From a phage, in sequence record PZ452578.1: DNA of 64,000 bases; one strand, 5' to 3'. Under the pieces are notes generated by a model. The model made no database searches and had not been told where the DNA came from. It saw nothing but the letters and a program-made list of their open reading frames with translations. The position numbers and the translations under genes are program-made. Positions 1,326 through 62,511 of this stretch are shown here, one piece after another. Positions within the stretch are counted from its first letter, which is position 1. Each line of letters starts with the position of its first letter.

Positions 1326-1335
1326 AAAATTTTTG

Positions 1336-1366
1336 AAATAAAAAAGGGAGAGCCTCGGCTCTCCCT
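1336..1366 (-). terminator. Intrinsic terminator (GC-rich hairpin GGGAGAGC-loop-GCTCTCCC followed by U-run on minus-strand RNA)
   Basis: Inverted repeat 1346-1365 with A-run 1336-1345 on plus strand. Confidence 0.7.
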
Positions 1367-1370
1367 AAAA

Positions 1371-1520
1371 TTACTGCATGACTGTGATAACTGTCATGAT
1401 AACACGTTGAATTCCGAACGCAAGAAGACCTCCTGCTACGGCTGGAACAACGCCTAAACCCGCTAGTAAAATGCTACCAGATACTAATGCAGCGCTTGTA
1501 ATACCTATGAATGGACTCAT
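1371..1520 (-). CDS. small hydrophobic protein (49 aa)
   Basis: Own translation MSPFIGITSAALVSGSILLAGLGVVPAVAGG...; start overlaps gp52 stop (ATGA); below ORF-track size cutoff. Confidence 0.45.
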   Translation of the reverse strand: MSPFIGITSAALVSGSILLAGLGVVPAVAGGLLAFGIQRVIMTVITVMQ

Positions 1521-2845: not shown

Positions 2846-2982
2846 AAATTTACCATACTAGTGAATGTAGTGCCATAATAACATCAGAAATGAAAAGCAC
2901 GACTTGAATTAATCCGAACATTACTCCATAATATAGTGCTACCAATAAAGTAGCAAGGGCTAATGAATAGCCCAAGATTTTC

Positions 2983-3141
2983 TTAATCATTAGTAGATAA
3001 CAACACAAATGTTAAATATGCACACATACCCTGGGCTAAAGCTTGTGAAAACACACTGCTAGCATCGATACAGATAGTTAAAACACATGCTACTATCCAA
3101 CAAATAAATGAAATAACTCCTAATAATTTTGCGATATTCAT
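2983..3141 (-). CDS. small membrane protein (52 aa; internal ATG with GGAG RBS)
   Basis: ORF track 62 aa ORF; GGAG 8 nt upstream of internal ATG at 3141; hydrophobic. Confidence 0.5.
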   Translation of the reverse strand: MNIAKLLGVISFICWIVACVLTICIDASSVFSQALAQGMCAYLTFVLLSTND

Positions 3142-3151
3142 AATATTCTCC

Positions 3152-3307
3152 TCAACTATTTTTAGAACCAATGTACGCGAATAATGATAAAATCGCTAAT
3201 ACGCCCTGAGCTGATGCTTGCAAAAATACTGAAGTTTCTCCAGTTATTACTGTTCCGATGCATAAAAAGAACCAACAGAAAAAGGCTATACCGTGAACAA
3301 ATTTCAT
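3152..3307 (-). CDS. small membrane protein (51 aa), paralog of the 2983..3141 product
   Basis: Own translation MKFVHGIAFFCWFFLCIGTVITGETSVFLQASAQG...; AGGA RBS; similar to neighbour. Confidence 0.45.
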   Translation of the reverse strand: MKFVHGIAFFCWFFLCIGTVITGETSVFLQASAQGVLAILSLFAYIGSKNS

Positions 3308-4461: not shown

Positions 4462-4561
4462 AGTAAACGTTTAATACATCAATCATTAAAACGATTGGGA
4501 ATATACTCAAAACTACTAGTATTATAACTACATTCCATATAGCTTTAACAATCTTTTTCAT
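4448..4561 (-). CDS. small membrane protein (37 aa)
   Basis: Internal ATG at 4561 preceded by GGAGG; track ORF N-terminal extension is read-through of the promoter/leader. Confidence 0.5.
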   Translation of the reverse strand: MKKIVKAIWNVVIILVVLSIFPIVLMIDVLNVYFGFM

Positions 4562-4589
4562 TTTCTGTTCCTCCGTAGTTGATAGTTGT

Positions 4590-4635
4590 ATAGTACCACA
4601 GAGGAACAGTCTTGTAAACAACTTTTTAAAAATAT
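4590..4635 (-). promoter_or_regulatory. T4-type early promoter with conserved leader (near-identical twin at 58298..58335)
   Basis: Plus atagta 4590-4595, gtaaac 4614-4619; 17-bp spacer; TGg extended -10. Confidence 0.7.
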
Positions 4636-4835
4636 TCGTAATAAATGTGAATACCAACTACTACCGCTGAAACCTGTGCAACCCACCACGCACAAGCAAT
4701 AAGTACAGAATTCAAAATTTTCATAATAACCTCATCACAAAAGTAAATGTTAAACAAATTAATGGAATACTAATTAACCAAACAAAACACCACCATAATG
4801 AACTCATAGTTCAATCTCAACGATTTTCATTTTAC

Positions 4836-5042
4836 TCAATAATCCGCTAAAAGATCGACGATTGTATCACGAAGACACTTATTCGCAATACGTTTAAGAG
4901 CAATTTCAGTTTCTGGAGCATTTTGAATAATCATTGAATTCAATTCAGCCTCAGCAAACTGAAGTTCTTTAACTAATTCAGCTTTATATTTTCCTTGCCC
5001 TTTCTTAGCTTTTGCTCGTTTTAATTCAGCTGTAGTAAACAT
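4836..5042 (-). CDS. hypothetical protein (68 aa)
   Basis: Internal ATG at 5042 with GGAG RBS; upstream part of track ORF is promoter/leader read-through. Confidence 0.6.
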   Translation of the reverse strand: MFTTAELKRAKAKKGQGKYKAELVKELQFAEAELNSMIIQNAPETEIALKRIANKCLRDTIVDLLADY

Positions 5043-5076
5043 TTTATTCTCCAAATCCGTATCAGTTGATAATTGT

Positions 5077-5125
5077 ATATTACCACAGTCCTTGTGGTAT
5101 GTAAACCGTTTTGTGAAAAAATTTT
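5077..5125 (-). promoter_or_regulatory. T4-type early promoter with conserved leader
   Basis: Plus atatta 5077-5082, gtaaac 5101-5106; dyad ccaca-N5-tgtgg in spacer. Confidence 0.7.
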
Positions 5126-5683
5126 TTAAATGGAAAGATACCATCCATTGTAGTTGCTTTTTCTTACAACCTTACGAAGGTCTTCTCTATCACCGATGAA
5201 TTTCGGAGTGTACTGGATGACACCTGGATGAATTTCTTTAGTGTTGAATATAATTATACAGTCAGCGACTTGATGATTTAGAATGGGCCCTAGATTTATT
5301 CCAGAACCATATGGATATTCTCCGCTGCATCCGGTTGTTACCGAAATCCATCGTGAGTCAGTTTGATGTGTTTTGACTTCTACACGAAGCCCACAGTATT
5401 TTGGATGCGCCAATACATCCCATGCATATGTGTACGGATCATCGACATCTTCTTGACCTTTATTAACATACCCGCTTAACCAATCTGCTACAAAAAACTC
5501 TGCGTACACAGCGATACGACATCTTTCGATAACTTCTGCCTTATCCTGGTTCGGGTTTTGTTTTAAAGAGTATCTTGCTGTATCAGCAATTTTGACTTTC
5601 ATTTCACTAGTCAAGTCACTGTTCGATAGGGTAAATGTCGGAATCTGAAATAGTCTCTGTAGCCCCGGATTCGTTTTCTGCAT
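5126..5683 (-). CDS. denB: DenB endonuclease IV
   Basis: ORF track 185 aa; position between ndd and rIIB and length match T4 denB. Confidence 0.8.
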   Translation of the reverse strand: MQKTNPGLQRLFQIPTFTLSNSDLTSEMKVKIADTARYSLKQNPNQDKAEVIERCRIAVYAEFFVADWLSGYVNKGQEDVDDPYTYAWDVLAHPKYCGLRVEVKTHQTDSRWISVTTGCSGEYPYGSGINLGPILNHQVADCIIIFNTKEIHPGVIQYTPKFIGDREDLRKVVRKSNYNGWYLSI

Positions 5684-9390: not shown

Positions 9391-11202
9391 GCTCATCCAT
9401 TCTTTACGAAGGTCAGCATTATCTCCCATGAGCATTTCAAAAAGCTCTTTCCAGTTCTCAGGAAGTTTAACAACATCATATACTGGATTTTGAATCATCT
9501 CACGATATTCAGATTTTTCCAAAGAGCCAAGTCCCTTAATATAACGGATACTATGTTTAGGTAGAGCATCTTTAGCACTCTCATATTCAGCGACTGTATA
9601 AAACCATTCTTGTTTTTTACCGACCTGAGCGATGATTACAGGAGTTTTGACAAAGCGAATTCGTCCTTGCTCAAACAATTCTGGCCAATTACTAAAAAAT
9701 CCGAGCAGAGAAGGATAAATGCTTCCTAAACCATCATGGTCAGCATCAGTCATAATAGCAATATTATGATAATTCAAGTTTTCAGCTTTTTCACCTAGAA
9801 CTAAACCCGTGATTGCGCAAATATCAAACAGTTCTTTGTTTTTAAGCATATCAGCATATGACATACCCCAACTGTTGAGAACTTTACCACGCAATGGATA
9901 ACCACCATGAAGTTCTTTATCACGAACATCAATAAGATATCCGATAGCAGAATCACCCTCAGTCAAGAAAAGAGTAGTGTCAGCATCTTTACCACAAAGA
10001 TTCGCTTTAATATGTTTATGAACCTTAGCTTTAGAAGCCTTTTTAGCTGCTTTAGTTTCTGCTGCTTTTTCTGCTGCCAATTTACGAGCTAATGCTGCTT
10101 CAATAATTGGCATCAAAATTGCTTCATTATTTAGAATAGCGCGTGAAATCTTTTTAGCATCAAGTTGAATATGACTACGGATTTCACCAAATGGAGAAGT
10201 CAAACGCTCTTTAGTTTGAGAATCAAATCGCATGTTTTTCATATCACGAACAAACATAACGATAGTCAAACATTCTTTGACACGTGCTTTAGTTACATCA
10301 ATTTTGAACTTACGTTTGATTTGTGGAATAAGGTCTTCACAAATATCATCCATAACACAGTCAATGTGATGGCCACCATTCTTAGTGTGAATGTTATTCA
10401 CATAAGTTAATTGACGAAATCCATCCGGTGAACGACCAACCGCAATAGAACAATTTTCTTGTTCTTGAACAATAGCATGTTCATCATACTGTCGTGCATA
10501 TTTCTTAAAATTGCCCTGAACCTTTTTACCATTAAAGGTAAATTGAATATCAGGATAAACAACAGCAAGTGTCTGGAGACGATCCAGTGTAATGTCAAGA
10601 TAAACTTGGGACAGCTCATTAGTTTCAAATGACATAAAATCAGGAATGAAAGTAACACGAGTTCCTTTCCATTTTCCAGGAATATCTTCCCATGATTTAT
10701 TTTCCATGCCATTTGAACAACGAACTACAATATTATTTTGACCATCACCAGTTTCACCGACAAACATCACAGAAAAAATGTTTGTCAAACTAGAACCAAC
10801 ACCATTCATACCACCGGTGACGCGTTCTTTATCATCACCGAAGTTACCACCTGCTTTTGGAATAGTCCACGCAGCAACAGGACCAGGAATTTCTTCACCT
10901 GTAGGTGTTTTAACCATCGCCTGTGGAATACCGCGACCGTTATCTTCAACTGTTACCTGATTATTTTTAATAGTAACATTAATTTTATTTGCGAATTTAA
11001 ACTTAGTACGAATACCTTCATCTACTGAGTTATCAATAATTTCATCAATAAGCTTAACAAGACCAGGTACATACTGAACACTTTCCCATTTACCAAACAG
11101 AAAGCGCTCATGCATTTCATTAGCAGAAGAGCCAATATACATGCCGCTACGCTTTTTGATATGTTCAATATCGCTCAGAATTTTAATTTCATTCTTAATC
11201 AT
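9385..11202 (-). CDS. 39: DNA topoisomerase II large subunit gp39 (GyrB-like), uninterrupted 39/60 fusion form
   Basis: ORF track; ATG at 11202 gives 605 aa; GHKL ATPase N-terminus MIKNEIKILSDIEHIKKRSGMYIGSS. Confidence 0.95.
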   Translation of the reverse strand: MIKNEIKILSDIEHIKKRSGMYIGSSANEMHERFLFGKWESVQYVPGLVKLIDEIIDNSVDEGIRTKFKFANKINVTIKNNQVTVEDNGRGIPQAMVKTPTGEEIPGPVAAWTIPKAGGNFGDDKERVTGGMNGVGSSLTNIFSVMFVGETGDGQNNIVVRCSNGMENKSWEDIPGKWKGTRVTFIPDFMSFETNELSQVYLDITLDRLQTLAVVYPDIQFTFNGKKVQGNFKKYARQYDEHAIVQEQENCSIAVGRSPDGFRQLTYVNNIHTKNGGHHIDCVMDDICEDLIPQIKRKFKIDVTKARVKECLTIVMFVRDMKNMRFDSQTKERLTSPFGEIRSHIQLDAKKISRAILNNEAILMPIIEAALARKLAAEKAAETKAAKKASKAKVHKHIKANLCGKDADTTLFLTEGDSAIGYLIDVRDKELHGGYPLRGKVLNSWGMSYADMLKNKELFDICAITGLVLGEKAENLNYHNIAIMTDADHDGLGSIYPSLLGFFSNWPELFEQGRIRFVKTPVIIAQVGKKQEWFYTVAEYESAKDALPKHSIRYIKGLGSLEKSEYREMIQNPVYDVVKLPENWKELFEMLMGDNADLRKEWMSQ

Positions 11203-22367: not shown

Positions 22368-22577
22368 TTAAATTACATGATTATTTATAATAAATTCTCG
22401 CGGAACGTTAAAATACCCAATTTTAGTTAATATAACAATATCGCCGTTAATAATTACCGGAGAATAATCGGCTGGAGCATTAAATTTCCAATGGGCTCTA
22501 ATATTATATCCATCAGAACCAAATGCTCGACTAGCCGGTCTCCCGGCTTTTTGCCATGCATAAAAATCAAATTTCAT
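22368..22577 (-). CDS. hypothetical protein (69 aa)
   Basis: ORF track. Confidence 0.5.
   Translation of the reverse strand: MKFDFYAWQKAGRPASRAFGSDGYNIRAHWKFNAPADYSPVIINGDIVILTKIGYFNVPREFIINNHVI
22382..22389 (-). promoter_or_regulatory. T4 late promoter TATAAATA about 30 nt upstream of soc
   Basis: Reverse complement of 22382-22389 is TATAAATA; soc is a late gene. Confidence 0.55.
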
Positions 22578-22777
22578 TTTGAATGCTCTATAATTAATTT
22601 TAAGGCTTCTTCACGCACCAACTTGTCTAATGGTATATGCCCAGTTTTAATTGTGTAAGCTTTGTGGAGCTGATTAGATAAGAGCTCGTATGTGAGCTCT
22701 TTGTCATAATCTTTAAATAGCTGGTCAATACGTTTCTTGCGGGCTTTCTTAAGCTGGCGTTTATTTAAACGAGCCAT
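22574..22777 (-). CDS. hypothetical protein (67 aa)
   Basis: ORF track. Confidence 0.55.
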   Translation of the reverse strand: MARLNKRQLKKARKKRIDQLFKDYDKELTYELLSNQLHKAYTIKTGHIPLDKLVREEALKLIIEHSK

Positions 22778-23295
22778 TAATATCCTCTGTCTTGACGAGC
22801 GAAGTTTTCAGCATTTTTCAGATAATAAAGTTTAAATATTTCTTCAGCTGACATTCCAAGAGCAATGAATTTATTCATGAAAAAGTGAAATTGATCAATC
22901 AGTTCAAATTTAATTTCAAGTTGATCTTCAGGAGATAAATCTTGAATTTTCTTGGATTGCATTTCAGAATAACGTTTCTTCCAAGGTTTCCATACAGCAG
23001 AAGCTTCTTTTTCACCATTACTCATACCACCAAGAGAAGTATATAGCTCGCGAGTTTCGTCTGCGATATAATCGTCTTGGTTTCGCAACCAAGCAAGAAC
23101 TTCTCCTGCAGTTTCAAGTGAATCGGGATGACGATTTGTTTCTGGTTTATCATTAGCCAAACGAATCTGTAAATGCCGCTGCATGTCAAGCATAACCTGC
23201 AGTGGGTCAATATTGTGCATAATATTCTCAGCATATGCACGATTTGCTTTATCAACACCTTCGATCAAATGAGCGCATTCATTAAAGTAAGCCAT
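22777..23295 (-). CDS. 56: gp56 dCTPase/dUTPase
   Basis: ORF track ORF; internal start MAYFNECAHLIEGVD gives ~172 aa; C-terminus KLYYLKNAENFARQDRGY recalled from T4 gp56. Confidence 0.8.
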   Translation of the reverse strand: MAYFNECAHLIEGVDKANRAYAENIMHNIDPLQVMLDMQRHLQIRLANDKPETNRHPDSLETAGEVLAWLRNQDDYIADETRELYTSLGGMSNGEKEASAVWKPWKKRYSEMQSKKIQDLSPEDQLEIKFELIDQFHFFMNKFIALGMSAEEIFKLYYLKNAENFARQDRGY

Positions 23296-23366
23296 TATTT
23301 TTCCTTTCAATTCGTGGGTTAGTAGATTAATTATACAATAAATATATAAAGCAATAAGGAGGACAT

Positions 23367-28379: not shown

Positions 28380-29553
28380 TAAATTCTTCCATATCACTTA
28401 ACTGTTCTAGGTCAGTTTCTAAATCAGCAGCTGATTTACTTTTACTTTCTGGAGATTTAAATTTTTCAACCTTTGAGTTAATTAATTCATCGACTTCAGC
28501 TTCAACAATTTCATTACTATCAATAGCACCTAACTGATAAGCACGTTTAATAGCATCTCGGAATGGTTGATGCTTAAATAAAGGACCCCAGAATGTAGTG
28601 CAGTTGGTATCTTTTGCACGCCAAGATTTTTCTTCGCGAATCATCTCGCCGGTTTCTTCATCAAGAAATTCACGAGCATACCAGCCATTTTTAGGTTTTA
28701 CAACAAATCCTAATTCTAGAGCCATATCTAACAATCCAGAATAAGGATCGATACCACCGTCAAATTTAACATCAATAAAGAATTTACTTTTTTCTTTAAC
28801 GGTACGAGATTTTTCTACATTTAGAACAAATTGATACCCCTGAAGATCAGAACCATCTTTAATCTGGCGTTTACCGATAATGAATACAGTATCAGCCGAA
28901 TACATTACGCCTGTACCACCTGTCATCACGGTTTTACTAAACATTTCAATTGTTTCAATTGTATGGTTAACCGCAACACATGGAATATTTTTAATGCTAA
29001 AATAAGGAGTAACAATACGGAATAATGACTTCAGTGATTTAGCACGAGTCATATCTGCCACAGATTTTTCATTCAAGGCATCTTCCGTTTCTTTCTTAGA
29101 AGCCATATTACCGATTGAGTCGATGAATACAATAACCTTTTCACCACGCTCAATAGCTTCAAGCTGGTTCACCATATCAATTTTCAGCTGTTCAACTGAC
29201 TGGATTGGCGTATGAATTACACGTTCCGGGTCAACTCCCATGGATCGCAAATAAGCTGGAGTAATACCAAATTCGCTATCATAGAATAGACAAACCGCGT
29301 CAGGATATTTGTTTAAATATGCCGCAACCATAGTCAAAGACATATTTGATTTAAAGTGTTTAGAAGGCCCTGCGAAAATAGTTAAACCAGACTGCATGCC
29401 GCCATCAATCGCACCAGAAATAGCAATATTAAGCATTGGGATTTTTGTACGGATTACATCCTTTTCATTAAAGAATTTAGATGTAGTCAGTTCAGCAGTC
29501 ATTTTAGAAGTGGAAGCTTTAATCAAACGGGATTTTAAATCTGCAATAGACAT
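28372..29553 (-). CDS. uvsX: UvsX recombinase (RecA-like)
   Basis: ORF track 393 aa; matches T4 UvsX sequence as recalled. Confidence 0.95.
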   Translation of the reverse strand: MSIADLKSRLIKASTSKMTAELTTSKFFNEKDVIRTKIPMLNIAISGAIDGGMQSGLTIFAGPSKHFKSNMSLTMVAAYLNKYPDAVCLFYDSEFGITPAYLRSMGVDPERVIHTPIQSVEQLKIDMVNQLEAIERGEKVIVFIDSIGNMASKKETEDALNEKSVADMTRAKSLKSLFRIVTPYFSIKNIPCVAVNHTIETIEMFSKTVMTGGTGVMYSADTVFIIGKRQIKDGSDLQGYQFVLNVEKSRTVKEKSKFFIDVKFDGGIDPYSGLLDMALELGFVVKPKNGWYAREFLDEETGEMIREEKSWRAKDTNCTTFWGPLFKHQPFRDAIKRAYQLGAIDSNEIVEAEVDELINSKVEKFKSPESKSKSAADLETDLEQLSDMEEFNE

Positions 29554-29630
29554 TCATTTTTTCCATAGGCATCATTATATTTTCCTCACTGGTTAAAGAT
29601 AGAGTAATTATAACACAATAAATTTAGGCA

Positions 29631-30472
29631 TTAATCAACTGCTATCGGATGAATAGCATTAAACTTATGAAATGCTTCTGATTTTTCTTTGCGCGAAACA
29701 CACATGCGAAGAACCTTTAATGGCTCGTCTTCTTCACCCAACGATTTTCGTTTTTCAATATTAGAAGTTTTCCAACGAGCTTGCTCTGGAAACTCTCTAT
29801 TGATTTGCTCAAGCGCTCTATTATGTTTAGAATTACTACGAATTGAACTGCACCCGCCAGGAGCTTGTGCTTTTCCAGATACAACCAGATATTTGAACAA
29901 GGCCAAATGCGGATAACCTTGATTAATTAAATTGAGAAATGCATACATATCTTCGCACAAATCAATTTTTCCATACCCAATTTGTTCTGTCGTAAGTTTT
30001 CCAAGGTCATACCATGTATTCGTGAATCCATATGAATTTTCACGATAATTACCCCAAGATGAAGTAATTTTAAAAATTGGTAGACGAGCATGACCGTGAT
30101 AATACCCACAATCCATGGCATCCTCAACATATTGAATCAATTCATAGAACTGTTCACGAGTCAATTGATTGACTTTATCTACGCAACGACGATCATCTCT
30201 TTTTCGCATTGAACTCATACGAATAGTAGTATCATCGTCAATCATCCAGATTCGTTGACCTGCATACATATCAGTAATTGCTTTACGAGTACCGGCAATT
30301 CCGTTTACATCATCAGGAATAGTTACAATTTTAGCTCTAGACCCATAGGCATCATAATAAGCTTTTTCTTCGTGTTCACGCACTACAATATGGGTTCATA
30401 ATCAGTCGGAAACATATCAAGGGCAGAAACTGCCCCAACACGCTGATAACTTGGAATTACGAATTGAATCAT
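29631..30472 (-). CDS. GT-A-type glycosyltransferase at the beta-gt locus (not T4 beta-gt); split by an apparent 1-nt frameshift near 30383-30395
   Basis: 29-codon ORF 30383..30472 (MIQFVIPSYQRVGAV..., ATGA-coupled to gene 42 stop) continues in another frame as the 250-aa track ORF; DXD motif WMIDDDT. Confidence 0.6.
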
Positions 30473-31209
30473 TTCCACTCACCTTTATAGTCTTTTTTCA
30501 CAATATGAGTTTCGCCCGTATTCCACCAATGATCAACCAAGTAAAAATGACGAGAATATACATGAAGACTTCCAACATTCCATATAATAGAACCTGCTTT
30601 ATACTGACGAGTTGAATCGCCTGCATTCAAATCAGATACTAATTTATCTAATACGTATTTTTGCCATGCATAATCATTACGGAATCCGAAGACCACGTCA
30701 TTTGAGCGCATGCTTACTACTGCATTGACTTTCTTGTCACGAATCAGATACTGTACGGTATTCGTACACATGAAATCTGACATACCGTCTTTATTATAGT
30801 CAAACTGCATAGATGGACGAGTATAAATCATGATACCACGTCGAGAATCAGGATTTTGACCAAGTTCAGCTAAACACATATCATACTGGGCATAGTTATC
30901 TTCTGACCAGATAGCCCAACCATAATTCGAGTTAATTTCACCTTTAGAAGATGCTACTTGTTGCCAAATCTTCGGTGTTTCACCCGGAATATCTTTAACG
31001 AACAAGCTCTTAGATTTATACCATTCAAGTTCACGCTGAATGTATTCATCATTAAGAGCGCCAAAAATAAACGGTTCATCTGCTACAAATGATGCGCCAA
31101 TAATTTCAATAGTTTTAACACCAGTTTTATCAACTACGAAATCTTTTTCCTTTAATGCAGTTCCCAAATAAAAACGGATTTCTTCAACTGTCATAGAGTC
31201 ATTAATCAT
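30469..31209 (-). CDS. 42: gp42 dCMP hydroxymethylase
   Basis: ORF track 246 aa; near-identical to recalled T4 gp42. Confidence 0.95.
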   Translation of the reverse strand: MINDSMTVEEIRFYLGTALKEKDFVVDKTGVKTIEIIGASFVADEPFIFGALNDEYIQRELEWYKSKSLFVKDIPGETPKIWQQVASSKGEINSNYGWAIWSEDNYAQYDMCLAELGQNPDSRRGIMIYTRPSMQFDYNKDGMSDFMCTNTVQYLIRDKKVNAVVSMRSNDVVFGFRNDYAWQKYVLDKLVSDLNAGDSTRQYKAGSIIWNVGSLHVYSRHFYLVDHWWNTGETHIVKKDYKGEWK

Positions 31210-32002: not shown

Positions 32003-32036
32003 TTCATTCTCCAAATCCGTATTAGTTGATAGTTGT

Positions 32037-32085
32037 ATAGTACCATGGAAGAACAGTCTTGTAAACAGTTTTGTGAAAAATTTTT
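32037..32085 (-). promoter_or_regulatory. T4-type early promoter with conserved leader
   Basis: Plus atagta 32037-32042, gtaaac 32061-32066. Confidence 0.7.
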
Positions 32086-32144
32086 AGGGAATCCAAAGGG
32101 TCCAGAATCATCTGTTTTTCATAAGTATAGATTTATATTACTTG

Positions 32145-43150: not shown

Positions 43151-44351
43151 ATTTTGTAATAATGTCAAACTGTTCTTTAAAGCAGAAGCTTGAATCTTGA
43201 TGCTGATACAAAAATTCATAAGCTTTTTCGCGTTCACGGTCATAAAGAGTTCGGTTAGATGACAGTTCTTTAATACGTTCAAATGTTGATTCCATGTCAT
43301 TTTCATCAAACCAAATGATACCGCTATCATGCGAAGTCAAAGGAGTATTATCAACACGGAATTTTAAATTTTCGCCCGTAGATTTCCAAAATACCGGAAT
43401 TGTTCCACATGCACCAAGCTCGAGATGAGTATATTCTAAAGAACGTTGTAGATATTTTTTGTCCAACTTACTCAGCTGATAACCAAAACCGGATTTACTC
43501 ATACGTTCAAGCATTTCGCTATTTACATAACGGTCAAGAATTTGCGTTGGCAAATTAGGAGCAATTTTAATTTGGTCTACTTGATGAAGACGATAATACT
43601 CGTATGGAATTCCTTTTTCTTTAATAGGAATGAACGCTGGAGAACGTTCCAGACCTTCCATAATAGTACTTAGTCCTGCAGGTTTAAGATATTTTTCATG
43701 AAAATCAAACATCTGATAAAAACCTTTCCATGTAGTCGTACGACCAATCCAACGGTTGATATTCATGTTAATTTCAGAAACATCTTTCCAGTAGGTTGAC
43801 CGAACCTTCGCAATATCCATAGGAGGCTGAAAGTTATATACGGTCGGTGCTTCTTCAATATCATCAAACAGAGAAACTGTTTCAGGATACCATTCTTTCA
43901 TCAGAACTTTATTAAAATCGCCATTATCAGAATGACTAAAAATAACATCAGCTCGACGAACAGTTTCTTCTAATCCCAAATTTCGACGCAAAGAAAGAGA
44001 AGAATGGTCATGTTGATAAACTACAACACGAACAGAAGGTTTAATATTATCAATAATTTTTTTATAGTTATTAATGGTGTCTTCTTCTACTGAAGTAGCA
44101 GGAACTGAATTGATAATTAGAATATCACAATCATTTACCAGCTTAAGTGTTTTATCGTATTCTTTTGCCAATAAAACTGGAATTGAAAATGACTTATAAT
44201 CATGCGCGCAATTACGAGTAAATGATTTATCTTTAGCATAAACCAAAATTACTTCATGACCATTTTTAATAAACCAATCACGTTGCTCGAGTGAGAATTT
44301 TGTTACACCACAACCTTCAAGACCTCGAGCCATAAAAATACATACTTTCAT
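43149..44351 (-). CDS. a-gt: alpha-glucosyltransferase (HMC-DNA)
   Basis: ORF track 400 aa; N-terminus MKVCIFMARGLEGCGVTKFSLEQ matches T4 a-gt. Confidence 0.9.
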   Translation of the reverse strand: MKVCIFMARGLEGCGVTKFSLEQRDWFIKNGHEVILVYAKDKSFTRNCAHDYKSFSIPVLLAKEYDKTLKLVNDCDILIINSVPATSVEEDTINNYKKIIDNIKPSVRVVVYQHDHSSLSLRRNLGLEETVRRADVIFSHSDNGDFNKVLMKEWYPETVSLFDDIEEAPTVYNFQPPMDIAKVRSTYWKDVSEINMNINRWIGRTTTWKGFYQMFDFHEKYLKPAGLSTIMEGLERSPAFIPIKEKGIPYEYYRLHQVDQIKIAPNLPTQILDRYVNSEMLERMSKSGFGYQLSKLDKKYLQRSLEYTHLELGACGTIPVFWKSTGENLKFRVDNTPLTSHDSGIIWFDENDMESTFERIKELSSNRTLYDREREKAYEFLYQHQDSSFCFKEQFDIITK

Positions 44352-44401
44352 TTAATATCCTCATTGTTTTGGTTTATTTTACCAAAAATTTATAAAGCAA
44401 T

Positions 44402-48389: not shown

Positions 48390-48860
48390 TTAATCATGTT
48401 TCCACACCCCATCGGTATTTGACCAAAGTCGCTGATTATCTGATCCTCGCCACAGCTTTTTGGTCGGAAGATTTTTCTCATACTTCCCATCAATAATAAC
48501 ATCAACATATTTAAGCATTTCTAGTTGTTTAATATCTTCAAACTTGTACCCTGTCCACAACCAAATGCTTTTATTTGGATAAAGATTTTTTACTGTTTGA
48601 ACAATGCAATGAACAACATCTCGGTTATCAGGATAAAGAGGGTCACCTCCGGTTATAGTTAATCCTTCTATATAATCATTATTCAAACATTCAATTAATT
48701 GTTCTAGTGTTTCACCGGTGAATGGAATACCATTTCTAGCATTCCATGTTGATTTATTATAACACCCTTCGCATTTATGCAAACAACCTGTAACGAAAAG
48801 AACGACCCTGCAACCAGGGCCATTCACAAAATCGCAAGGATAAAATCTATCATAATTCAT
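48390..48860 (-). CDS. nrdG: NrdG anaerobic ribonucleotide reductase activase (radical SAM)
   Basis: ORF track 156 aa; Cys cluster CDFVNGPGCR...CEGC. Confidence 0.9.
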   Translation of the reverse strand: MNYDRFYPCDFVNGPGCRVVLFVTGCLHKCEGCYNKSTWNARNGIPFTGETLEQLIECLNNDYIEGLTITGGDPLYPDNRDVVHCIVQTVKNLYPNKSIWLWTGYKFEDIKQLEMLKYVDVIIDGKYEKNLPTKKLWRGSDNQRLWSNTDGVWKHD

Positions 48861-50674
48861 TGGTGTTTAACCCTATGCATGATTTCTTTATTTTTGCCAA
48901 GATTAAATCCGCGCTCGTTCGGATTTCCCAAATAGCCGCATGTTCTTCTTATGGTGTTCATCTTTTTAGGATCAGTTTCTCCACAAATAGAACAAACAAA
49001 TCCGTTTTCAGTAGGAGTCATTTCATGGGTACTTCCGCATGTAAAACATTTATCTACTGGCATATTAACACCAAAATAATCTAAATGTTGTGCAGCATAA
49101 TCCCATACGGCCTCAAGGCCTTTTAAGTTATTTTTCATATCAGGAAGTTCAACATAAGAAATGTGACCACCTGTCGCAATGAAATGATATGGCGCTTCAC
49201 GAGAAATCTTTTCAAACGGAGTAATATTTTCTTCTACTGAAACATGGAAACTGTTAGTGTACCAACCTTTATCGGTAACATCTTTTACGCTTCCATATTT
49301 TTCTGTATCGAGTTTACAGAAGCGATAACAAAGGTTTTCAGCAGGAGTCGAATATAAACTAAAAGCAAATCCAGTTCTTTCAGTCCACTGTTTAAGATGA
49401 GCATTCATTTTAGTTAAAATTTCCTGTCCAATATCACGACCGACAAGAATATTCAATTCATGAATACCAATGTATCCTAGGGACACTGAACTTCTACCGT
49501 TTTTAAATAACTCAATTATGTCGTCATCAGGTTTAAGACGAACCCCGAATGCACCTTCTTGGTAAAGAATAGGAGCAACAGTAGCTTTAACTCCTTTTAA
49601 GGAACTAATTCTACACATCAAAGCTTCAAAACACAAATCCATACGTTCATTGAATAATTCAACAAATTTCTGTTCGTTAAATTGTGTTCCAATATAAGAA
49701 TCTAATGCAATGCGAGGAAGATTCAGTGTTACAACACCAAGATTATTACGTCCATCAAGAATTTCATTACCAGTCGAATCTTTCCATACGCTCAAGAAAC
49801 TACGGCATCCCATCGGAGAAACAGGAATAGATGAACCAGTGATAGCTTTATTGTTCTTAGCTGAAATAATATCAGGATACATCCTTTTGCTTGCACACTC
49901 TAAAGCAAGCTGCTTAATATCATAGTTCGGATCGTCTTTATAAAGATTAACACCTTCTTCAACAAACATAACAAGCTTAGGGAAAATAGGAGTTATCCCA
50001 TCACGACCAAGACCTTTAATACGATTTTTCAGAATTGCTTTCTGAATCATTCGTTCAGTCCAGTCAGTTCCCGTACCAAATGTAATTGTTACAAAAGGCG
50101 TTTGTCCGTTTGAACTAAAGAGAGTATTTACTTCATATTCATAAGCTTGAAATGCATCGTATACGTCTTTTTCTGTTTTAGATTGAGCATAATTCAACGC
50201 ATCGGCGATTTGCCATTTTTCTGCATCCTCAATATGTTTTGCATAGGTGCGTTTAACATAAGGAGAAAGTACTTTATCTACATTCGCAAAAGTCGTTCCG
50301 CCGTATTGGTGAGAAGCAACTTGCGCAGTAATTTGTGCCATAATTGCAGTAGCAACTCCAATTGATTTAGGAGTTTCAATCTGTGCATTACCTAGCTTAA
50401 ATCCGTTTTCAAGCATTCCTTTTAAATCTACTAAACAACAATTAGTAAATGGAAGAGCAGGGGAATAATCAATATCATGGAAATGAATAATTCCGCTTTC
50501 ATGCGCTTTCATAATAAAAGACGGGACCATATTTTTGGCAATGTGTTTAGACACAATACCAGCCATAAGGTCCCGTTGAGTTGGAAAAACACGAGAATCT
50601 TTATTAGCATTCTCGTTTAAAAGGTCTTTATTAGTTTTATGAATCAATCCTTCAATTTCTTTTTCAATTGTCAT
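48857..50674 (-). CDS. nrdD: NrdD anaerobic ribonucleoside-triphosphate reductase, intronless
   Basis: ORF track 605 aa continuous; C-terminal glycyl-radical region and CxxC zinc site. Confidence 0.95.
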   Translation of the reverse strand: MTIEKEIEGLIHKTNKDLLNENANKDSRVFPTQRDLMAGIVSKHIAKNMVPSFIMKAHESGIIHFHDIDYSPALPFTNCCLVDLKGMLENGFKLGNAQIETPKSIGVATAIMAQITAQVASHQYGGTTFANVDKVLSPYVKRTYAKHIEDAEKWQIADALNYAQSKTEKDVYDAFQAYEYEVNTLFSSNGQTPFVTITFGTGTDWTERMIQKAILKNRIKGLGRDGITPIFPKLVMFVEEGVNLYKDDPNYDIKQLALECASKRMYPDIISAKNNKAITGSSIPVSPMGCRSFLSVWKDSTGNEILDGRNNLGVVTLNLPRIALDSYIGTQFNEQKFVELFNERMDLCFEALMCRISSLKGVKATVAPILYQEGAFGVRLKPDDDIIELFKNGRSSVSLGYIGIHELNILVGRDIGQEILTKMNAHLKQWTERTGFAFSLYSTPAENLCYRFCKLDTEKYGSVKDVTDKGWYTNSFHVSVEENITPFEKISREAPYHFIATGGHISYVELPDMKNNLKGLEAVWDYAAQHLDYFGVNMPVDKCFTCGSTHEMTPTENGFVCSICGETDPKKMNTIRRTCGYLGNPNERGFNLGKNKEIMHRVKHQ

Positions 50675-57741: not shown

Positions 57742-58269
57742 TTATGCGAGTACCGTCTTTAACCGTTCTTCAAACTTCCGAAGAGTATTCTGGCGTTCAG
57801 CTCTTTGCTTTTTGTAAGTTTCAATACGCTCTGAAATGAGAGTGTATCGTTCATTTACTGATTCTTTCATAAAATCAGGAATTTCACGAGAAGCTTTAAT
57901 CTCGTCAAATTTATCAATAACAGCTTGCTCTTCAGCAATTAAGTTATCATACATCAAAATATCTTTCTTGATGAACTCAATATCTTCTTGAGTTACACGA
58001 GATAACTTAGATGCTTTATCCTTTTTGTACTGTTCGTTAGTATCACGAGACCAGTGTAATGCACGATTTTTATTCGTATTTTTGTAAATTTCTACAATAC
58101 CAATCTCATCAATAATAACGATCCAATTCCAACGGGATTTGTAAATCTGCCCTCCATCAACCGTAATTTCACCTCCGATTGAGATGTCATTAAAGAACTT
58201 GCTTTGTGCTTCTGATTTAAATTTACCATCGTTGTAATTTACCAGGTTGAAAATATCTTTAGCGTTCAT
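57742..58269 (-). CDS. hypothetical protein (175 aa)
   Basis: ATG at 58269 with GGAGG RBS; track extension is promoter read-through. Confidence 0.65.
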   Translation of the reverse strand: MNAKDIFNLVNYNDGKFKSEAQSKFFNDISIGGEITVDGGQIYKSRWNWIVIIDEIGIVEIYKNTNKNRALHWSRDTNEQYKKDKASKLSRVTQEDIEFIKKDILMYDNLIAEEQAVIDKFDEIKASREIPDFMKESVNERYTLISERIETYKKQRAERQNTLRKFEERLKTVLA

Positions 58270-58297
58270 TTTGTGTTCCTCCGTAGTTGATAGTTGT

Positions 58298-58335
58298 ATA
58301 GTACCACAGAGGAACGGTCTTGTAAACAACTAAAA
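58298..58335 (-). promoter_or_regulatory. T4-type early promoter with conserved leader (twin of 4590..4635)
   Basis: Plus atagta 58298-58303, gtaaac 58322-58327. Confidence 0.7.
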
Positions 58336-58644
58336 GAAACTTCTTTCACAATTTTTTCCACTGAACCAAGCGCTCACTGCTTTCTTAGTCTCAGGAGCAG
58401 TGTTATCCATAAACCATTCAAAGGCAGCCTTTTTATGATTCTGGAGGGCTTCTCGGGCTTTAATCTGCTCACGGTCTATTAACACTAACATATGAGCCTT
58501 TCTTGTCACCATGGGCTTCTTATGATTTTTTGAATACTCCCAATCATTTGTCCATCGCATCGTTGTTGCGAATTGAAGTACAGCTTCTTTAATTTTAGTT
58601 TCGTAAATTTCACGAGCCTTTGAGTATAACATCATTACCTCCAT
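58330..58644 (-). CDS. hypothetical protein (104 aa)
   Basis: ORF track. Confidence 0.6.
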   Translation of the reverse strand: MEVMMLYSKAREIYETKIKEAVLQFATTMRWTNDWEYSKNHKKPMVTRKAHMLVLIDREQIKAREALQNHKKAAFEWFMDNTAPETKKAVSAWFSGKNCERSFF

Positions 58645-58714: not shown

Positions 58715-59434
58715 TTACGATTCTTCTAAATGTCTTTTCTGAAAAGTTGATACCATACTACGATAAGGTTCATTTGGATACCCGTGTTTTATAGCTTCCT
58801 TTGTAAATTTTCTCCATCCGTATTTAGTTTCTTTCCAAAGCTCGAATAATTCATCTTCATACTGCCATATAGTTAAATGAGAACGCTTTGCAGCTTTAAT
58901 TCCATTAATGTGCTTTTCTTTTACTGTAGGATTGCTTAGTGTCTTTTTAATAATATTACTAACTTTTCTAACAAAAGCTGGGTCCTTATATCGTTGTGAA
59001 GTTTTTATTGAAGTGTTTAATTTAGCTTCCGGCGTGGATGTGACCTCTTTCATCTTTTTCTTCATATGCTCTATATGATTAGGATTTTTCCATAAATTTA
59101 TAGAATGCTTTTTACATTTTATCCTAGTTTCATCTGCAACCTTTCCTCCTTCACCCCCATATGACAGGTTAACGCAGTTTTTTCCATATTTCAATTTACC
59201 TGCCATGATATATAATATTTCGGCTTGTACCATTTTATCATAATTATCAAAAACTTCTAAAACCGTTTTTGATAATATATGGTCATTTGACACTTTTACA
59301 CGTTCTATATAATTTCCACTACCAACATACGAATCATTGATGTTATTAGTTATATGTCGACCATAATAGTATTTCTTAATACCTGTCTTTAAATTTAATA
59401 TTTCAGTTTTATAGATAGTAAAATATTTTTTCAT
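58715..59434 (-). CDS. putative GIY-YIG-family homing endonuclease (239 aa)
   Basis: ORF track; N-terminal TIYK...KYYYG pattern and Lys-rich C-terminal repeats; weaker match than the 42349 gene. Confidence 0.5.
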   Translation of the reverse strand: MKKYFTIYKTEILNLKTGIKKYYYGRHITNNINDSYVGSGNYIERVKVSNDHILSKTVLEVFDNYDKMVQAEILYIMAGKLKYGKNCVNLSYGGEGGKVADETRIKCKKHSINLWKNPNHIEHMKKKMKEVTSTPEAKLNTSIKTSQRYKDPAFVRKVSNIIKKTLSNPTVKEKHINGIKAAKRSHLTIWQYEDELFELWKETKYGWRKFTKEAIKHGYPNEPYRSMVSTFQKRHLEES

Positions 59435-60399
59435 TTTAATAATACCGTTTCAGCGATTTCTTCCCAACCGTTTTTGTCGGTCATAATAAAGTCAGCAAGA
59501 TAAAGAGCAGTACGCAGTGAAACATTACGTAAACGATTAACATTGACTTTCATCCATGATAATGCTTTATAAGTTTCTTCATCAGAAAGACCGCGTTTTT
59601 GCATCATGTCAGTTGAAAGAATAACATCTTCAACCCTGACCATAATTTCTTCATTAGTGTGAACACCCAAATCTAAATAAACTGAGCGGGACACTAATGC
59701 TTGTAAATGTGGAGCAAGTTTAGTACCACGGTCTAATTCACGGTCAATGTCAACGTTTGTGATAAAAACAATTGTTCCTTTAAATTCAAACTCACGGTCA
59801 ATGCCTTTTTCTTCTAAGTAAGAAGATGCAGTGCTCCAGCAGACTTTACGGGTCTCTCCAGTGTCCAGAGCAGCTTTCAGAAGATTAAGAATGTCCATAT
59901 CAGAGAAAACATCCACATCATCAATCAAAAGGACAGAATTCTCTTCACGATTATTCCAAAGCTGTTCATAAAGACCGATACCAGAGATTTTACCATTAAT
60001 GCTTTTATACTCAATGTATCCAATATCATTTGCTTTATTTAAAGCTTTATCTAAAGAATACGTTTTACCAATGCCTGCCGCACCAGAGATAATTAATGAA
60101 CGAATGTTTCCGTTAATAATACCATTCGTCATCATTCCCATAACATTAAATCTTTTATTAATGCGGGTTTTCATATCTTCATATGATTCTTTAACTTCTT
60201 CAACTTTTACACCATCATATGAAATGTCTGATTTGTAAACCCAAACACCGCGACGCTTACCGTCAATTTCAACAAAAACTTTACCATCTCCTTGTGCATC
60301 TACCGGAGCATTATCAGGGAACCACTCACCTAAGAGTTCAAAAGTTCCAGAGATTTCTTTACCGAAGTAGATACCCTTATTGATAGTTACAGTTTTCAT
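59431..60399 (-). CDS. P-loop NTPase (AAA+-like), 323 aa
   Basis: ATG at 60399 with GGAG RBS; Walker A GAAGIGKT, Walker B VLLIDDVD. Confidence 0.7.
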   Translation of the reverse strand: MKTVTINKGIYFGKEISGTFELLGEWFPDNAPVDAQGDGKVFVEIDGKRRGVWVYKSDISYDGVKVEEVKESYEDMKTRINKRFNVMGMMTNGIINGNIRSLIISGAAGIGKTYSLDKALNKANDIGYIEYKSINGKISGIGLYEQLWNNREENSVLLIDDVDVFSDMDILNLLKAALDTGETRKVCWSTASSYLEEKGIDREFEFKGTIVFITNVDIDRELDRGTKLAPHLQALVSRSVYLDLGVHTNEEIMVRVEDVILSTDMMQKRGLSDEETYKALSWMKVNVNRLRNVSLRTALYLADFIMTDKNGWEEIAETVLLK

Positions 60400-60436
60400 T
60401 TTATTCTCCAAATCTGTATCAGTAGTTGATAGTTGT

Positions 60437-60480
60437 ATAGTACCATAAAGCTTTATGCTTGTAAACAGTTTTGTGAAAAA
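60437..60480 (-). promoter_or_regulatory. T4-type early promoter with conserved leader
   Basis: Plus atagta 60437-60442, gtaaac 60461-60466. Confidence 0.7.
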
Positions 60481-60484
60481 ATTT

Positions 60485-60514
60485 TGAAATAAAAAGGGAG
60501 CCCGAAGGCTCCCT
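60485..60514 (-). terminator. Intrinsic terminator (GGGAGCC-UUCG-GGCUCCC + U-run)
   Basis: Inverted repeat 60496-60513 with A-run 60491-60495 on plus. Confidence 0.7.
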
Positions 60515-60515
60515 A

Positions 60516-61529
60516 TCATTTATAATAACTTCGGTGGTTTTCAAGATAGACCTTCTCAAGGAAGTCATCCCAGAAACTCATGTCTACTTTTTGCTGCATA
60601 CCGTTCTTAGAAGCTTCAGTAGATGCTGCTTCTACTTGATCGACCACATCTTCCAAAAACTCTTGAACCGTTTTAAATGGATGTTTACCCAACTTCACGT
60701 CGAGAATAAATGGAGCATCTTGGAGTGGATAAACCAAGTCACCAGTTTTGTAAATTTCCAACAGTTGGAGTCCACCACGGCAAGCATGACTCAGAGCTTT
60801 CCAGTCAATACCTTCATTGGCTTCGGCCTTACGAGCACGTTCACCATATTCAGCATCTAATTTGTTCAGTGACTGCTTAAGCTCAATAAGAGAAAGCGTT
60901 GTCTGATATTTACGACCCAACACTGTATAAAACGTTTGTGGGCCGGTTTTCTCATGATTATGGAACACCCATTCACAGAATTCATTCTTTGGAAGACGAT
61001 GCTTAATATCTTCAACTTTAGTACGACGCTGCTTAATAGAACCATCTTCTTGGTAATCAACCCATTGCTCAGGGATTTGATTAACTACTTTCAATACATC
61101 ACGTAATGCAGCCAAACGAGAACCTTTGACACCGTATTTAGAAGCTTGCTTGCGGACATATCCTAAATATGATTTCATATTAGTCGTATAAAAACGAGAA
61201 CGGTTGTCTTGAATAAACTTCCACACATCAGGTAAATCAGATTTAACCACTAGTTCAGGTGGAGTATGAAGCATATCTAATGCTACAGTTTCACCATCTG
61301 CTGCTAATTTAAAGAAATATTTAAGACTGTATAGTTCATGGTCAATATCATCTTTAGTGTTTTTAGATGATGTGTTGTTAGTGTTTTTACTCATGTGCTC
61401 TTTAACATTTCCAATAAGAATATCACGAGCAGGAGGAACAAAGATTTCTTTAAAATCTACATCAGATTCTGGAGTAGAAGTTCCATAAAGATGACTACCA
61501 AAATAGCTTTTCATTACTGTTTTCATCAT
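60516..61529 (-). CDS. Pol-beta-superfamily nucleotidyltransferase (337 aa)
   Basis: ORF track; N-terminal motif YFGSHLYGTSTPESDVDF (GS-x9-DxD). Confidence 0.7.
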   Translation of the reverse strand: MMKTVMKSYFGSHLYGTSTPESDVDFKEIFVPPARDILIGNVKEHMSKNTNNTSSKNTKDDIDHELYSLKYFFKLAADGETVALDMLHTPPELVVKSDLPDVWKFIQDNRSRFYTTNMKSYLGYVRKQASKYGVKGSRLAALRDVLKVVNQIPEQWVDYQEDGSIKQRRTKVEDIKHRLPKNEFCEWVFHNHEKTGPQTFYTVLGRKYQTTLSLIELKQSLNKLDAEYGERARKAEANEGIDWKALSHACRGGLQLLEIYKTGDLVYPLQDAPFILDVKLGKHPFKTVQEFLEDVVDQVEAASTEASKNGMQQKVDMSFWDDFLEKVYLENHRSYYK

Positions 61530-61987
61530 TCAGCCTTATATTCAATAACAGGACATACTTTAGCTTTACGAGCTTTTAAAAATTCAACGATAACCGATTT
61601 CTTGGGTTGAATAGGAGGTAAACCTTTATACGCCCTATCAATATTTTCTACGTGTAAAGCATAATCCTTTTTCCATTTATAATCTTTATATTTTTCACGC
61701 AAATGTGCAGGAATAACAAATGAACCGATAATAAGTAAAACAACCAAAAGCGCAAGTATAAATGCTGATGGAAGCAAAGTCCATAAACTACCAAAAATAA
61801 TCCAACGCTGTAGGCTTTCTGCACAAATAATTGTTAGCCCTACGAGTATAGCACATCCAAAAATAGAAACGAAAAATGTAGGAATGGCAATAGACCAAAA
61901 ATATGCGCATAGTGTCTTAGGTCGTTGCCATTCATCGTTAAACAATTTGAATAATTTATAGTGCCAAGAGTTTTCATTAATAATCAT
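61526..61987 (-). CDS. membrane protein (153 aa)
   Basis: ORF track; two or three hydrophobic helices. Confidence 0.6.
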   Translation of the reverse strand: MIINENSWHYKLFKLFNDEWQRPKTLCAYFWSIAIPTFFVSIFGCAILVGLTIICAESLQRWIIFGSLWTLLPSAFILALLVVLLIIGSFVIPAHLREKYKDYKWKKDYALHVENIDRAYKGLPPIQPKKSVIVEFLKARKAKVCPVIEYKAE

Positions 61988-61989
61988 AA

Positions 61990-62511
61990 TTATCCTTTCA
62001 TTGAAAGCGTAACGGTTGTTAAATACTTAATCATAGCTTCAGCTTCTGATTTTGACAATGAAATTTCTCCATTGTTTTGACGAATAGAAATAAAATCCGG
62101 ATGACGGTCACCGCCAGCTTTTAAAACACACATATAAGTATCAACTTCGCCTTCAATATTTGAAATGATTGAAGCAGTTCCACATGAATGCGGTTTTTGA
62201 TAAATCAATACAGCTTTTCTTCCGCCATTTGACTGCTCATAGGCTTTTAATACATCAAACAAATCACTTCTTTTATCAATAGCTAAAATGTTATTTTCAT
62301 CTTCAATGTTAAATCCTTCGGATACTTCATAAAGTGTCACCCATAAATCGCCAATATCAATAACAGCGTTCACTTTTCCATGACTTTCAAGAGCATGACA
62401 AATTTTCTTGATTTCGTCATAACTCATTTTAATAATATCATCTCCTTGAATAAGAAAGATGTCATTTTTAAATTCAACACGAATTAAACCACTTCCACTT
62501 GAAATAAACAT
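61990..62511 (-). CDS. hypothetical protein (173 aa)
   Basis: ORF track; C-terminus similar to next ORF. Confidence 0.6.
   Translation of the reverse strand: MFISSGSGLIRVEFKNDIFLIQGDDIIKMSYDEIKKICHALESHGKVNAVIDIGDLWVTLYEVSEGFNIEDENNILAIDKRSDLFDVLKAYEQSNGGRKAVLIYQKPHSCGTASIISNIEGEVDTYMCVLKAGGDRHPDFISIRQNNGEISLSKSEAEAMIKYLTTVTLSMKG

Follow-up and report, generated by a model that had tools for sequence, protein, structure and literature searches.

Does the recurrence of a terminator hairpin, an early promoter and a conserved leader at two places on one phage genome reflect a shared cassette, and if so, does that cassette serve gene expression, gene exchange or both? The window, meaning the whole stretch of 64,000 nucleotides that was analysed (record PZ452578.1), comes from a T2/T4-like Tequatrovirus with ~97-98% identity to RB3, T2, REP1 and similar phages, and it spans motA, across rIIA, to the nrdC/mobD region. 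A sequence-only reading had proposed that two cassettes resembling promoter-early stem-loops (PeSLs) flank motA and an ATPase gene. The two-locus claim proved to be real, with coordinates that are exact when read on the minus strand, where both cassettes lie (locus A, motA.1/motA; locus B, nrdC.11/nrdC.10; Table 1). The cassettes do not flank these genes, however: one precedes motA and the other precedes the nrdC.10 homologue. As for the "ATPase" label, a Walker A motif (GAAGIGKT) is visible, but the AAA-family Pfam matches fall below the curated cut-offs.

Anatomy of the two loci

Each part of the proposed arrangement, namely the hairpin, the early promoter and the conserved leader, was borne out, and the anatomy fits the published PeSLs of T4/PST. 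Both terminators have GC-rich stems of 8-9 bp, tetraloops (UUCG at locus B, CGAG at locus A) and 5-6 U, as expected for rho-independent terminators. The locus A hairpin lies 4 nt past the motA.1 stop codon and folds with -17.6 kcal/mol (z = -4.19), and the one at locus B, which begins one nucleotide past the TGA that ends the nrdC.11 homologue and has its U-run at 60487..60495, folds with -17.1 kcal/mol (z = -4.29); in each case 0/200 shuffles folded as well. Terminators are annotated at these sites in relatives: a rho-independent terminator in ASO78A at the site orthologous to the locus A hairpin, and a "terminator" at the T4 orthologue of the locus B hairpin (GenBank U76612).

Table 1. Positions of cassette parts, neighbouring genes and further cassette family members in the window.
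Feature	Position	Strand	Basis or remark
Locus A terminator hairpin AGGGAGAGC-CGAG-GCUCUCCCU, then U-run	1345..1366	-	sequence, folding
Locus A UP-like region and core promoter: -35 TTTACA 1311..1306, spacer accaaagcatactgtgg, -10 TACTAT 1288..1283	1283..1344	-	sequence
Locus A leader ACAACTATCAACTGCTGATACAGAATTACGGAGATTAGAAA	1242..1282	-	unstructured on folding (z about 0)
Locus A SD / RegB-type site GGAGATTAGAA	1253..1243	-	RegB consensus 10/11; motA ATG at 1241..1239
motA, 211 aa	606..1241	-	Pfam MotA_activ E = 5e-61, MotCF E = 9e-67; annotation of relatives
motA.1, gene upstream of locus A	1371..1520		
Locus B terminator hairpin AGGGAGCC-UUCG-GGCUCCCU	60495..60514	-	sequence, folding, terminator scan match
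Locus B T-run and A/T-rich UP-like region TTTTTATTTCAAAATTTTTTCACAAAACTG	60466..60494	-	sequence
Locus B core early promoter, with -35 TTTACA at 60465..60460 and -10 TACTAT at 60442..60437 separated by 17 nt ending TGg	60437..60465	-	T4 orthologue annotated "early promoter 54.4"
Locus B leader ACAACTATCAACTACTGATACAGATTTGGAGAATAAA	60400..60436	-	sequence
Locus B SD and RegB/S1 consensus match GGAGAATAAAA	60409..60399	-	ATG at 60399..60397
nrdC.10 homologue, downstream gene, 322 aa, P-loop NTPase-like	59431..60399	-	Pfam AAA-type matches below curated cut-offs
nrdC.11 homologue, upstream gene ended by the terminator, RlaP-type nucleotidyltransferase	60516..61529	-	Pfam PF10127, E = 1.9e-11, above cut-off
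Cassette C, denB/ndd.6 slot	5040..5135	-	same UP/-35 20-mer; leader ACAATTATCAACTGATACGGATTTGGAGAATAAA
Cassette D, gene 43/imm.1 slot	32005..32095	-	same UP/-35 20-mer, TACTATACAACTATCAACT core; terminator ~87 nt upstream
Cassette upstream of nrdC.9	58267..58340	-	same -10, ACAACTATCAACTAC core; no upstream hairpin; twin of 4559..4640 cassette
Cassette upstream of ndd.4-like ORF	4559..4640	-	leader 24/24 identical to nrdC.9 cassette

The distance from the hairpin end to the -35 is 29 nt at locus B and 33 nt at locus A. At both loci the U-run passes into an A/T-rich stretch ending TTTTCACAAAAC(G/T)G, with A/T at 24-25 of the 30 nt upstream of the -35; at locus B, TTTTCACAAAACTG directly precedes TTTACA. 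Both promoters read GTTTACA-N17-TGgTACTAT and contain all UP/-35/TGn/-10 elements. T4 early promoters reportedly are also treated by Liebig and Rüger in 1989, Wilkens and Rüger in 1994 and Miller and colleagues in 2003. They have been described as UP/-35/TGn/-10 promoters with additional consensus regions (Hinton 2010, PMC2988021), and at loci A and B the consensus likewise extends past the core elements. Both loci are orthologous, at ~97% identity, to T4 elements with an identical core: the T4 orthologue of the locus B promoter, upstream of nrdC.10 (55383), is annotated as "early promoter 54.4" together with a minus_35_signal and a minus_10_signal (GenBank U76612), and an identical cassette precedes T4 motA (-35 at T4 163672). 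The window nrdC.10 leader (...CAACTACTGATACAG...) differs from that of T4 (...CAACTGATACGG...) by point differences and an ACT indel only, and nothing about the difference is categorical.

The leaders at the two loci are 37-41 nt long and unstructured (-1.7 kcal/mol, z = -0.29 at locus B), with GGAG 6-8 nt before the ATG. Their first part, +1..+11 (A-C-A-A-CTATCAA), probably belongs to the functional promoter or the initial transcribed region, since it is also conserved in Mosigvirus. The middle, CTRCTGATACAGA, is specific to the leader subtype, has variable internal spacing and contains the inverted repeat TATCA-N5-TGATA, and the 3' end is the RegB/SD block. We rejected the idea that the leader is a structured RNA element on the basis of its folding energy (-1.7 kcal/mol, z about 0) and the variable spacing between the TATCA and TGATA arms. 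A scan of the whole window against Rfam at gathering thresholds returned no matches.

The RegB/S1 site of T4 is GGAGAAUAAAA (GGAGRAYARAA) (Durand et al. 2006, PMC1702504; Uzan & Miller 2010, PMC3014915), and RegB needs no specific sequence 5' of the GGAG (PMC1702504). The motA mRNA is a classical RegB substrate that is cut in its SD (Hinton 2010, PMC2988021; PMC1702504). The match to the consensus is 11/11 at nrdC.10 and 10/11 at motA; as in the T4 sites, a GGAG SD is followed by an A-rich 7-mer in a single-stranded leader, and locus B has the T4 consensus itself. We regard both as predicted RegB cleavage sites in this phage. The regB gene itself lies beyond the end of the window.

Because of the exact orthology to characterised T4 elements, it is very likely that the two loci are rightly read in regulatory terms, with a terminator followed by an immediate-early promoter and then a translation initiation region that RegB can cleave, and we infer that promoter and terminator are active in vivo in this phage.

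The loci also invite comparison with PeSLs. The T4/PST PeSL described by Comeau, Arbiol and Krisch (2014, PMC4122927) has its stem-loop immediately before the promoter, which comprises an AT-rich region and TTTACW-N17-TAYWAT, and it closes at the 3' end with the SD and ATG. Loci A and B likewise have an upstream stem-loop terminator, an AT-rich region, TTTACA-N17-TACTAT and an SD with start codon at the 3' end, and, like PeSLs, they belong to a set of multiple copies in non-essential regions; at the level of sequence they display every PeSL feature. They differ in their hairpins, which are of the GC-rich GGGAG(A)GCC type, whereas the form described as frequent in PST is "AGNA-loop-TCNT" (PMC4122927). 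A second difference is that only a minority of the window's early promoters have a nearby hairpin. The motifs of the T-even internal-protein genes (Repoila et al. 1994, as cited in PMC2839356 and PMC4122927) are similar in that repeated early-promoter motifs flank swappable small genes; according to these citations, they differ in locus (ipI/ipII/ipIII) and in having weaker, more AT-rich stems.

Likeness between the loci and the cassette family

Segments of the two loci were compared against the background of the 16 strict early promoters of the window, anchored and taken as 120 pairs. The 24 nt of leader after the -10 are identical at 23/24 positions (96%) between A and B, compared with a median of 38%, and this level was reached by only 2/120 pairs. 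The spacers, in contrast, are 47% identical (median, 41%), and the ungapped UP identity of 69% falls in the top 8% of pairs and is not unique. The match is thus mosaic: strong over the terminator tail, the UP region and the -35, it drops to background across the spacer and is near-perfect between the -10 and +24. Neither promoter consensus alone nor simple duplication explains it, and the leader identity of 96% against 38% confirms that the similarity goes beyond promoter consensus. The 30-mer TACTATACAACTATCAACTRCTGATACAGA, which joins the -10 and leader, occurs at exactly two window sites at <=3 mismatches, where shuffles expect 0.00, and the UP/-35 20-mer TTTTCACAAAACKGTTTACA occurs at four exact sites and six at <=3 mismatches (0.09 expected).

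Could the likeness nonetheless be a product of the T4 early-promoter consensus, of chance or of a simple recent duplication? Similarity in UP, -35 and -10 would be expected for any two T4 early promoters, but the leader identity and the two occurrences of the 30-mer against none expected leave such an account with hardly any credibility. A simple A-to-B duplication was rejected: spacer identity is at the background level, the two hairpins are not alike, and T4 has an orthologue of each cassette.

A search for further copies, which the sequence-only reading had suggested, turned up six in the window, while in T4 a minimum of seven match or nearly match. The core TGGTA(C/A)TATACAA(C/T)TATCAA (TGGTACTATACAACTATCAA type) precedes six window genes: motA, the ndd.4-like ORF, the denB-proximal slot, imm.1, nrdC.9 and nrdC.10. 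When the whole T4 genome was assembled and scanned for cassettes, the same leader subtype also appeared upstream of ndd.6 (167085), e.8 (70695) and imm.1 (27079), and the T4 32/frd.3 and nrdC.10 cassettes were found to have ~72 nt in common, spacer included. T4-like genomes in IMG/VR carry 4-6 cassette copies each, and across the T4-like contigs of that database about 10 different genes come first behind the 20-nt core. A compact terminator hairpin within 35 nt was present at just 3/18 early promoters of the window; the notion that every early promoter is a PeSL was rejected on this count.

Gene content at the cassette slots

Between the window and T4 there are 21 indels or replacements, with locus A falling within the colinear block 1..3154 and locus B within 59452..61530. 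In this pair, breakpoints are not enriched at cassettes: 1/21 differences has a junction in a cassette, versus ~1.3 by chance. The sole cassette difference concerns cassette C, where a 67-aa ORF has entered at the ATG with flanking TAAAATG repeats, and the other differences are mostly mob/seg homing-endonuclease genes or introns. With only one of 21 differences at a cassette, cassette-mediated events are a minority of gene-content change, and homing endonucleases account for a larger part of the window-T4 differences than cassettes do.

Wider sampling of relatives gave a different result from the comparison with T4, in which neither locus is a breakpoint: gene-content breakpoints coincide with both slots A and B, and the junctions fall within the cassette. 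We surveyed slots using 1.2-kb BLAST queries, taking rows evenly spread down each ranking and counting relatives of >=93% identity with an insertion of >=100 bp, near-duplicate records included. Insertions were present in 8/22 sampled close relatives at slot B (nrdC.11/nrdC.10), 6/28 at slot A (motA.1/motA) and 12/20 at slot D (gene 43/imm.1), compared with 1/40 and 0/38 at two cassette-free, non-essential controls (nrdC.8-nrdC.6 and modA.3-mrh, respectively). Extra ORFs at the three slots thus occur in 21-60% of sampled close relatives, as against 1/78 for the pooled controls (pooled Fisher p = 5e-9, a value that ignores kinship and duplicate records in phylogenetically non-independent samples).

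For each class of insertion, a single representative was looked at in detail. Slot B holds an extra 66-aa ORF in KAW1E185, phiD1 and SH7, ORFs of 49 and 87 aa (the latter DUF4031) in KMB26 and ESh29, a 161-aa ORF in UFV-AREG1 and GRNsp7, and the 49-aa, 87-aa and 161-aa ORFs together in G29. In KAW1E185 and KMB26 the terminator and promoter native to the slot, together with the locus-specific spacer agcataaagctttatgg, now stand in front of the inserted ORF, and nrdC.10 has acquired a second promoter in both. Homology to the window ends after TACTATACAACTATCAA (TA(C/T)TATACAACTATCAA) in both phages, and in KMB26 it restarts at TTGGAGAATAAAATG of nrdC.10. The insertion at slot A is a 75-aa ORF, present in ASO78A, ACG-C40 and KMB26; here too the terminator and promoter ahead of it are unchanged and the left junction is the same, and both leaders flanking this insertion have CTATCAAATAAATGAACTGAAAC. 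At slot D of PP01, a 78-aa ORF is inserted at the ATG. The junction after "CTATCAA" coincides with the edge of the motif conserved across genera, and it could reflect where a promoter core under selection stops and not where a crossover took place.

In UFV-AREG1 and G29, the 161-aa gene brings its own promoter and its own terminator GGGGCCCTAGAGGTCCCC, a gene-32-type hairpin; in G29 the module has direct repeats TTTTTATTTCAAAAATTTTTCACAAAGTTGTTTAC on both sides. This module is 95-98% identical among Tequatrovirus (including T2), Moonvirus (Moon, CF1) and Gelderlandvirus (STML-198, KM16), compared with 76% for nrdC.10 and 67% for nrdC.11, the genes beside it, across genera. Both ends of the inter-genus high-identity block lie in UP regions, one edge being the UP-like region of locus B, and STML-198 keeps a T4-type leader, TACTATACAACTATCAACTGATACGGATTCGGAGAATAAAAT. 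Pfam assigned DUF4031 to the 87-aa ORF among the inserted ORFs and gave no match for the 161-aa and 239-aa ORFs. The label "ADP-ribosylase" on the 161-aa ORF is the depositors' annotation, with no Pfam match behind it.

A homologue of the slot-A 75-aa ORF, 63% identical, is gp55.1 of S16, where it is located in slot B, between ~55-nt direct repeats spanning the -10 to the SD. Published PeSL crossovers were mapped to the AT-rich region and between the -10 and SD/ATG (Arbiol et al. 2010, PMC2839356). The indels and ORF swaps seen here likewise break either in the AT-rich region or in the stretch from the -10 to the SD/ATG.

Expression, recombination or both

The explanation that we consider probable is a composite T-even early transcription punctuation cassette with an additional recombination (PeSL) role. 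A strong rho-independent terminator would end the upstream unit (gene 52-motA.1, or nrdC.11), and within ~30 nt an "uber" sigma-70 early promoter (A/T-rich UP, -35 GTTTACA, 17-nt spacer, extended -10 TGg, TACTAT) would be active immediately after infection. The short unstructured leader would offer a GGAG SD inside the 11-nt RegB/S1 recognition sequence, permitting a burst of translation before the SD is cut by the phage RegB endoribonuclease. Loci A and B are paralogues in a mosaic family whose similarity is probably kept partly by selection, given that Mosigvirus, too, conserves UP/-35/-10, the "CTATCAA" core at +1..+11 and the RegB site, and also by recombination between copies. ORFs, with or without their own promoter or terminator, would be inserted, deleted and exchanged at the cassettes, in line with the published PeSL model; the 40-75-nt patches could act as portable homology because their conservation far exceeds that of the non-essential genes around them.

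The PeSL-type interpretation of both loci is supported, its recombination component by the slot polymorphism, the repeat-flanked modules and the inter-genus block boundaries. On this reading, ORFs would come to lie at cassettes through recombination and not through selection for expression. Comparative data cannot fully separate a "recombination hot spot" from "insertions survive where expressed", and we considered an explanation by selection only, in which these are ordinary early promoters and terminators, ORFs are kept where they are expressed or arrive as "moron"-like genes with their own promoter, and the leader is conserved by constraints on initiation, promoter escape and translation, so that cassettes are no special recombination substrate. 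Conservation of the CTATCAA core, CACAAAAC-GTTTACA and GGAGAAUAAAAUG in Mosigvirus, where flanking genes are only ~73% identical, argues for function and agrees with such an explanation, as do the promoters carried by several inserted modules and the lack of breakpoint enrichment between the window and T4. Selection does not readily account, however, for a 95-98% identical inter-genus block bounded by UP regions on both sides, for inserted ORFs between 23-55-nt direct repeats of cassette sequence, or for consensus-free, locus-specific spacers common to distant loci such as the ~72 nt of T4 32/frd.3 and nrdC.10, and mini-circle crossovers between the -10 and SD have been shown experimentally in RB49/phi1 (PMC2839356). 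We judge selection acting on its own to be an unlikely explanation.

The leader middle CTRCTGATACAGA raises another possibility, that it is a distinct cis-regulatory element (a DNA operator or 5'-terminal RNA signal) for motA, nrdC.10, imm.1, ndd.6 and e.8, acting for example in early-promoter shut-off or Alt responsiveness. The segment occurs at five T4 loci and is conserved among T4, the window and IMG/VR relatives; RegB, needing nothing 5' of the GGAG, does not explain it; and reviews describe as unexplained both how early promoters are shut off and which promoter features determine stimulation by Alt (PMC2988021; PMC3014915). Yet the arm spacing is variable, with ACT slippage giving N5 or N2 at orthologous or paralogous sites, the motif is lost in window cassette D, an RNA hairpin folds no better than shuffles, the whole-window Rfam scan gave no match, and the segment is replaced wholesale in those relatives that have another ORF behind the same promoter. 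Such an element is accordingly improbable, and we think it very improbable that AUCAACU(AC)UGAUAC(A/G)GA at these five genes is a functional co-regulating cis-element beyond a recombination relic. If it were, the segment might be an early-promoter shut-off target, a determinant of Alt responsiveness or a determinant of mRNA stability at the 5' end.

The composite cassette is already known in both of its aspects: the early promoters and terminators of T4 have been described, and so have the PeSLs of T4/PST. Conceptually, then, nothing here is new; the value lies in confirmation and in concrete examples at two slots, a modest illustrative addition that includes a gene family found in slot A of one genus and slot B of another. 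Such cassettes are relevant to phage genome annotation and to predicting where accessory genes appear, and they bear on the engineering of T4-like therapeutic phages because the motA.1/motA and nrdC.11/nrdC.10 slots are natural, expression-ready insertion sites. For T-even phages, such cassettes would explain how early genes are turned hard on and quickly off, by a strong promoter followed by a RegB-cleavable ribosome site, and how small accessory genes, often candidates for host takeover or anti-defence, are exchanged among phages, even across genera.

Insertions and absences relative to T4

Many of the 21 indels or replacements that distinguish the window from T4 involve homing-endonuclease or intron elements. 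Those absent or replaced are mobA together with the gene 60 split, segF, segA with beta-gt, mobB, mobC, the nrdD intron with I-TevII, and mobD. Additional sequence is found beside nrdC.10, where a 734-bp insertion corresponding to a 239-aa ORF has no counterpart in T4. Pfam searches with this ORF gave no match at E ≤ 0.01. Because it is sited beside other T4 mob/seg sites, we suggest that it is a candidate free-standing homing-endonuclease-like gene. Compared with T4, cassette C carries a 67-aa ORF inserted precisely at its ATG and bounded on either side by TAAAATG repeats. The ORF falls within the denB-ndd region, in the neighbourhood where an ndd.4/.5 exchange has been reported for PST.

The window also lacks a counterpart of T4 dam (T4 16825-17725) at 22777..23356, where the flanking homologies are just 20 nt apart. 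In the adjoining gene 56 region, identity between the window and T4 is only 73%.

Locations of the features discussed (L numbers, comparison sequences; L014, STML-198)
Feature	Location	Strand	Remark
161-aa gene	L006:1445-1930; L013:1501-1986; L014:1501-1986
T4 gene 32/frd.3 cassette	T4 146795..146960		in L004
T4 nrdC.10 cassette	T4 55315..55445		in L003
Absent or replaced T4 homing-endonuclease/intron elements (sites)	window 9733..9785; 22389..22777; 29541..30487; 44342..44367; 48840..48860; 50136..50139; 61530..62493
67-aa ORF (MFTTAELKRAK...)	window 4838..5042	(-)	insertion relative to T4
239-aa ORF	window 58715..59434	(-)	between nrdC.10 and nrdC.9 promoter
nrdC.9 cassette	window 58267..58340	(-)	second twin pair
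ndd.4-like cassette	window 4559..4640	(-)	second twin pair

Paired and shortened cassettes

The nrdC.9 and ndd.4-like cassettes have identical leaders (24/24) and nearly identical spacers (16/17), and both are without an upstream hairpin. In T4, the gene 32/frd.3 and nrdC.10 cassettes, which are 91 kb apart, have ~72 nt in common, including the non-consensus spacer.

The cassettes of slots A and B are both shortened in a T4-like IMG/VR contig, UViG_2974787500_000001 (L025, L037). The missing segment comprises the terminator 3' arm, the UP region and the -35 element and, in slot B, reaches just short of the extended -10 TGG. STML-198 is similar, with a truncated terminator fused to the -10 element (L014 1425..1510). 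These losses may reflect a recurrent deletion from hairpin to -10, or they may represent 'half-PeSLs'.

Genes shared across slots and genera

The small ORFs S16 gp55.1 (L041:1377-1625) and ASO78A_256 (L010:848-1075) are homologous, with 63% amino-acid identity. ASO78A_256 occupies the motA.1/motA slot in Tequatrovirus, and S16 gp55.1 the nrdC.11/nrdC.10 slot in the Gelderlandvirus S16.

A 161-aa gene, labelled by its depositors as a ModA/ModB-like ADP-ribosylase, had no Pfam match in our analysis; the terminator of its module matches the gene 32 terminator hairpin. Among Tequatrovirus, Moonvirus, and Gelderlandvirus, the DNA of this gene is 95-98% identical, whereas its flanks are only 67-76% identical. 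Judged from this difference in sequence identity, the gene appears to have been transferred recently between genera.
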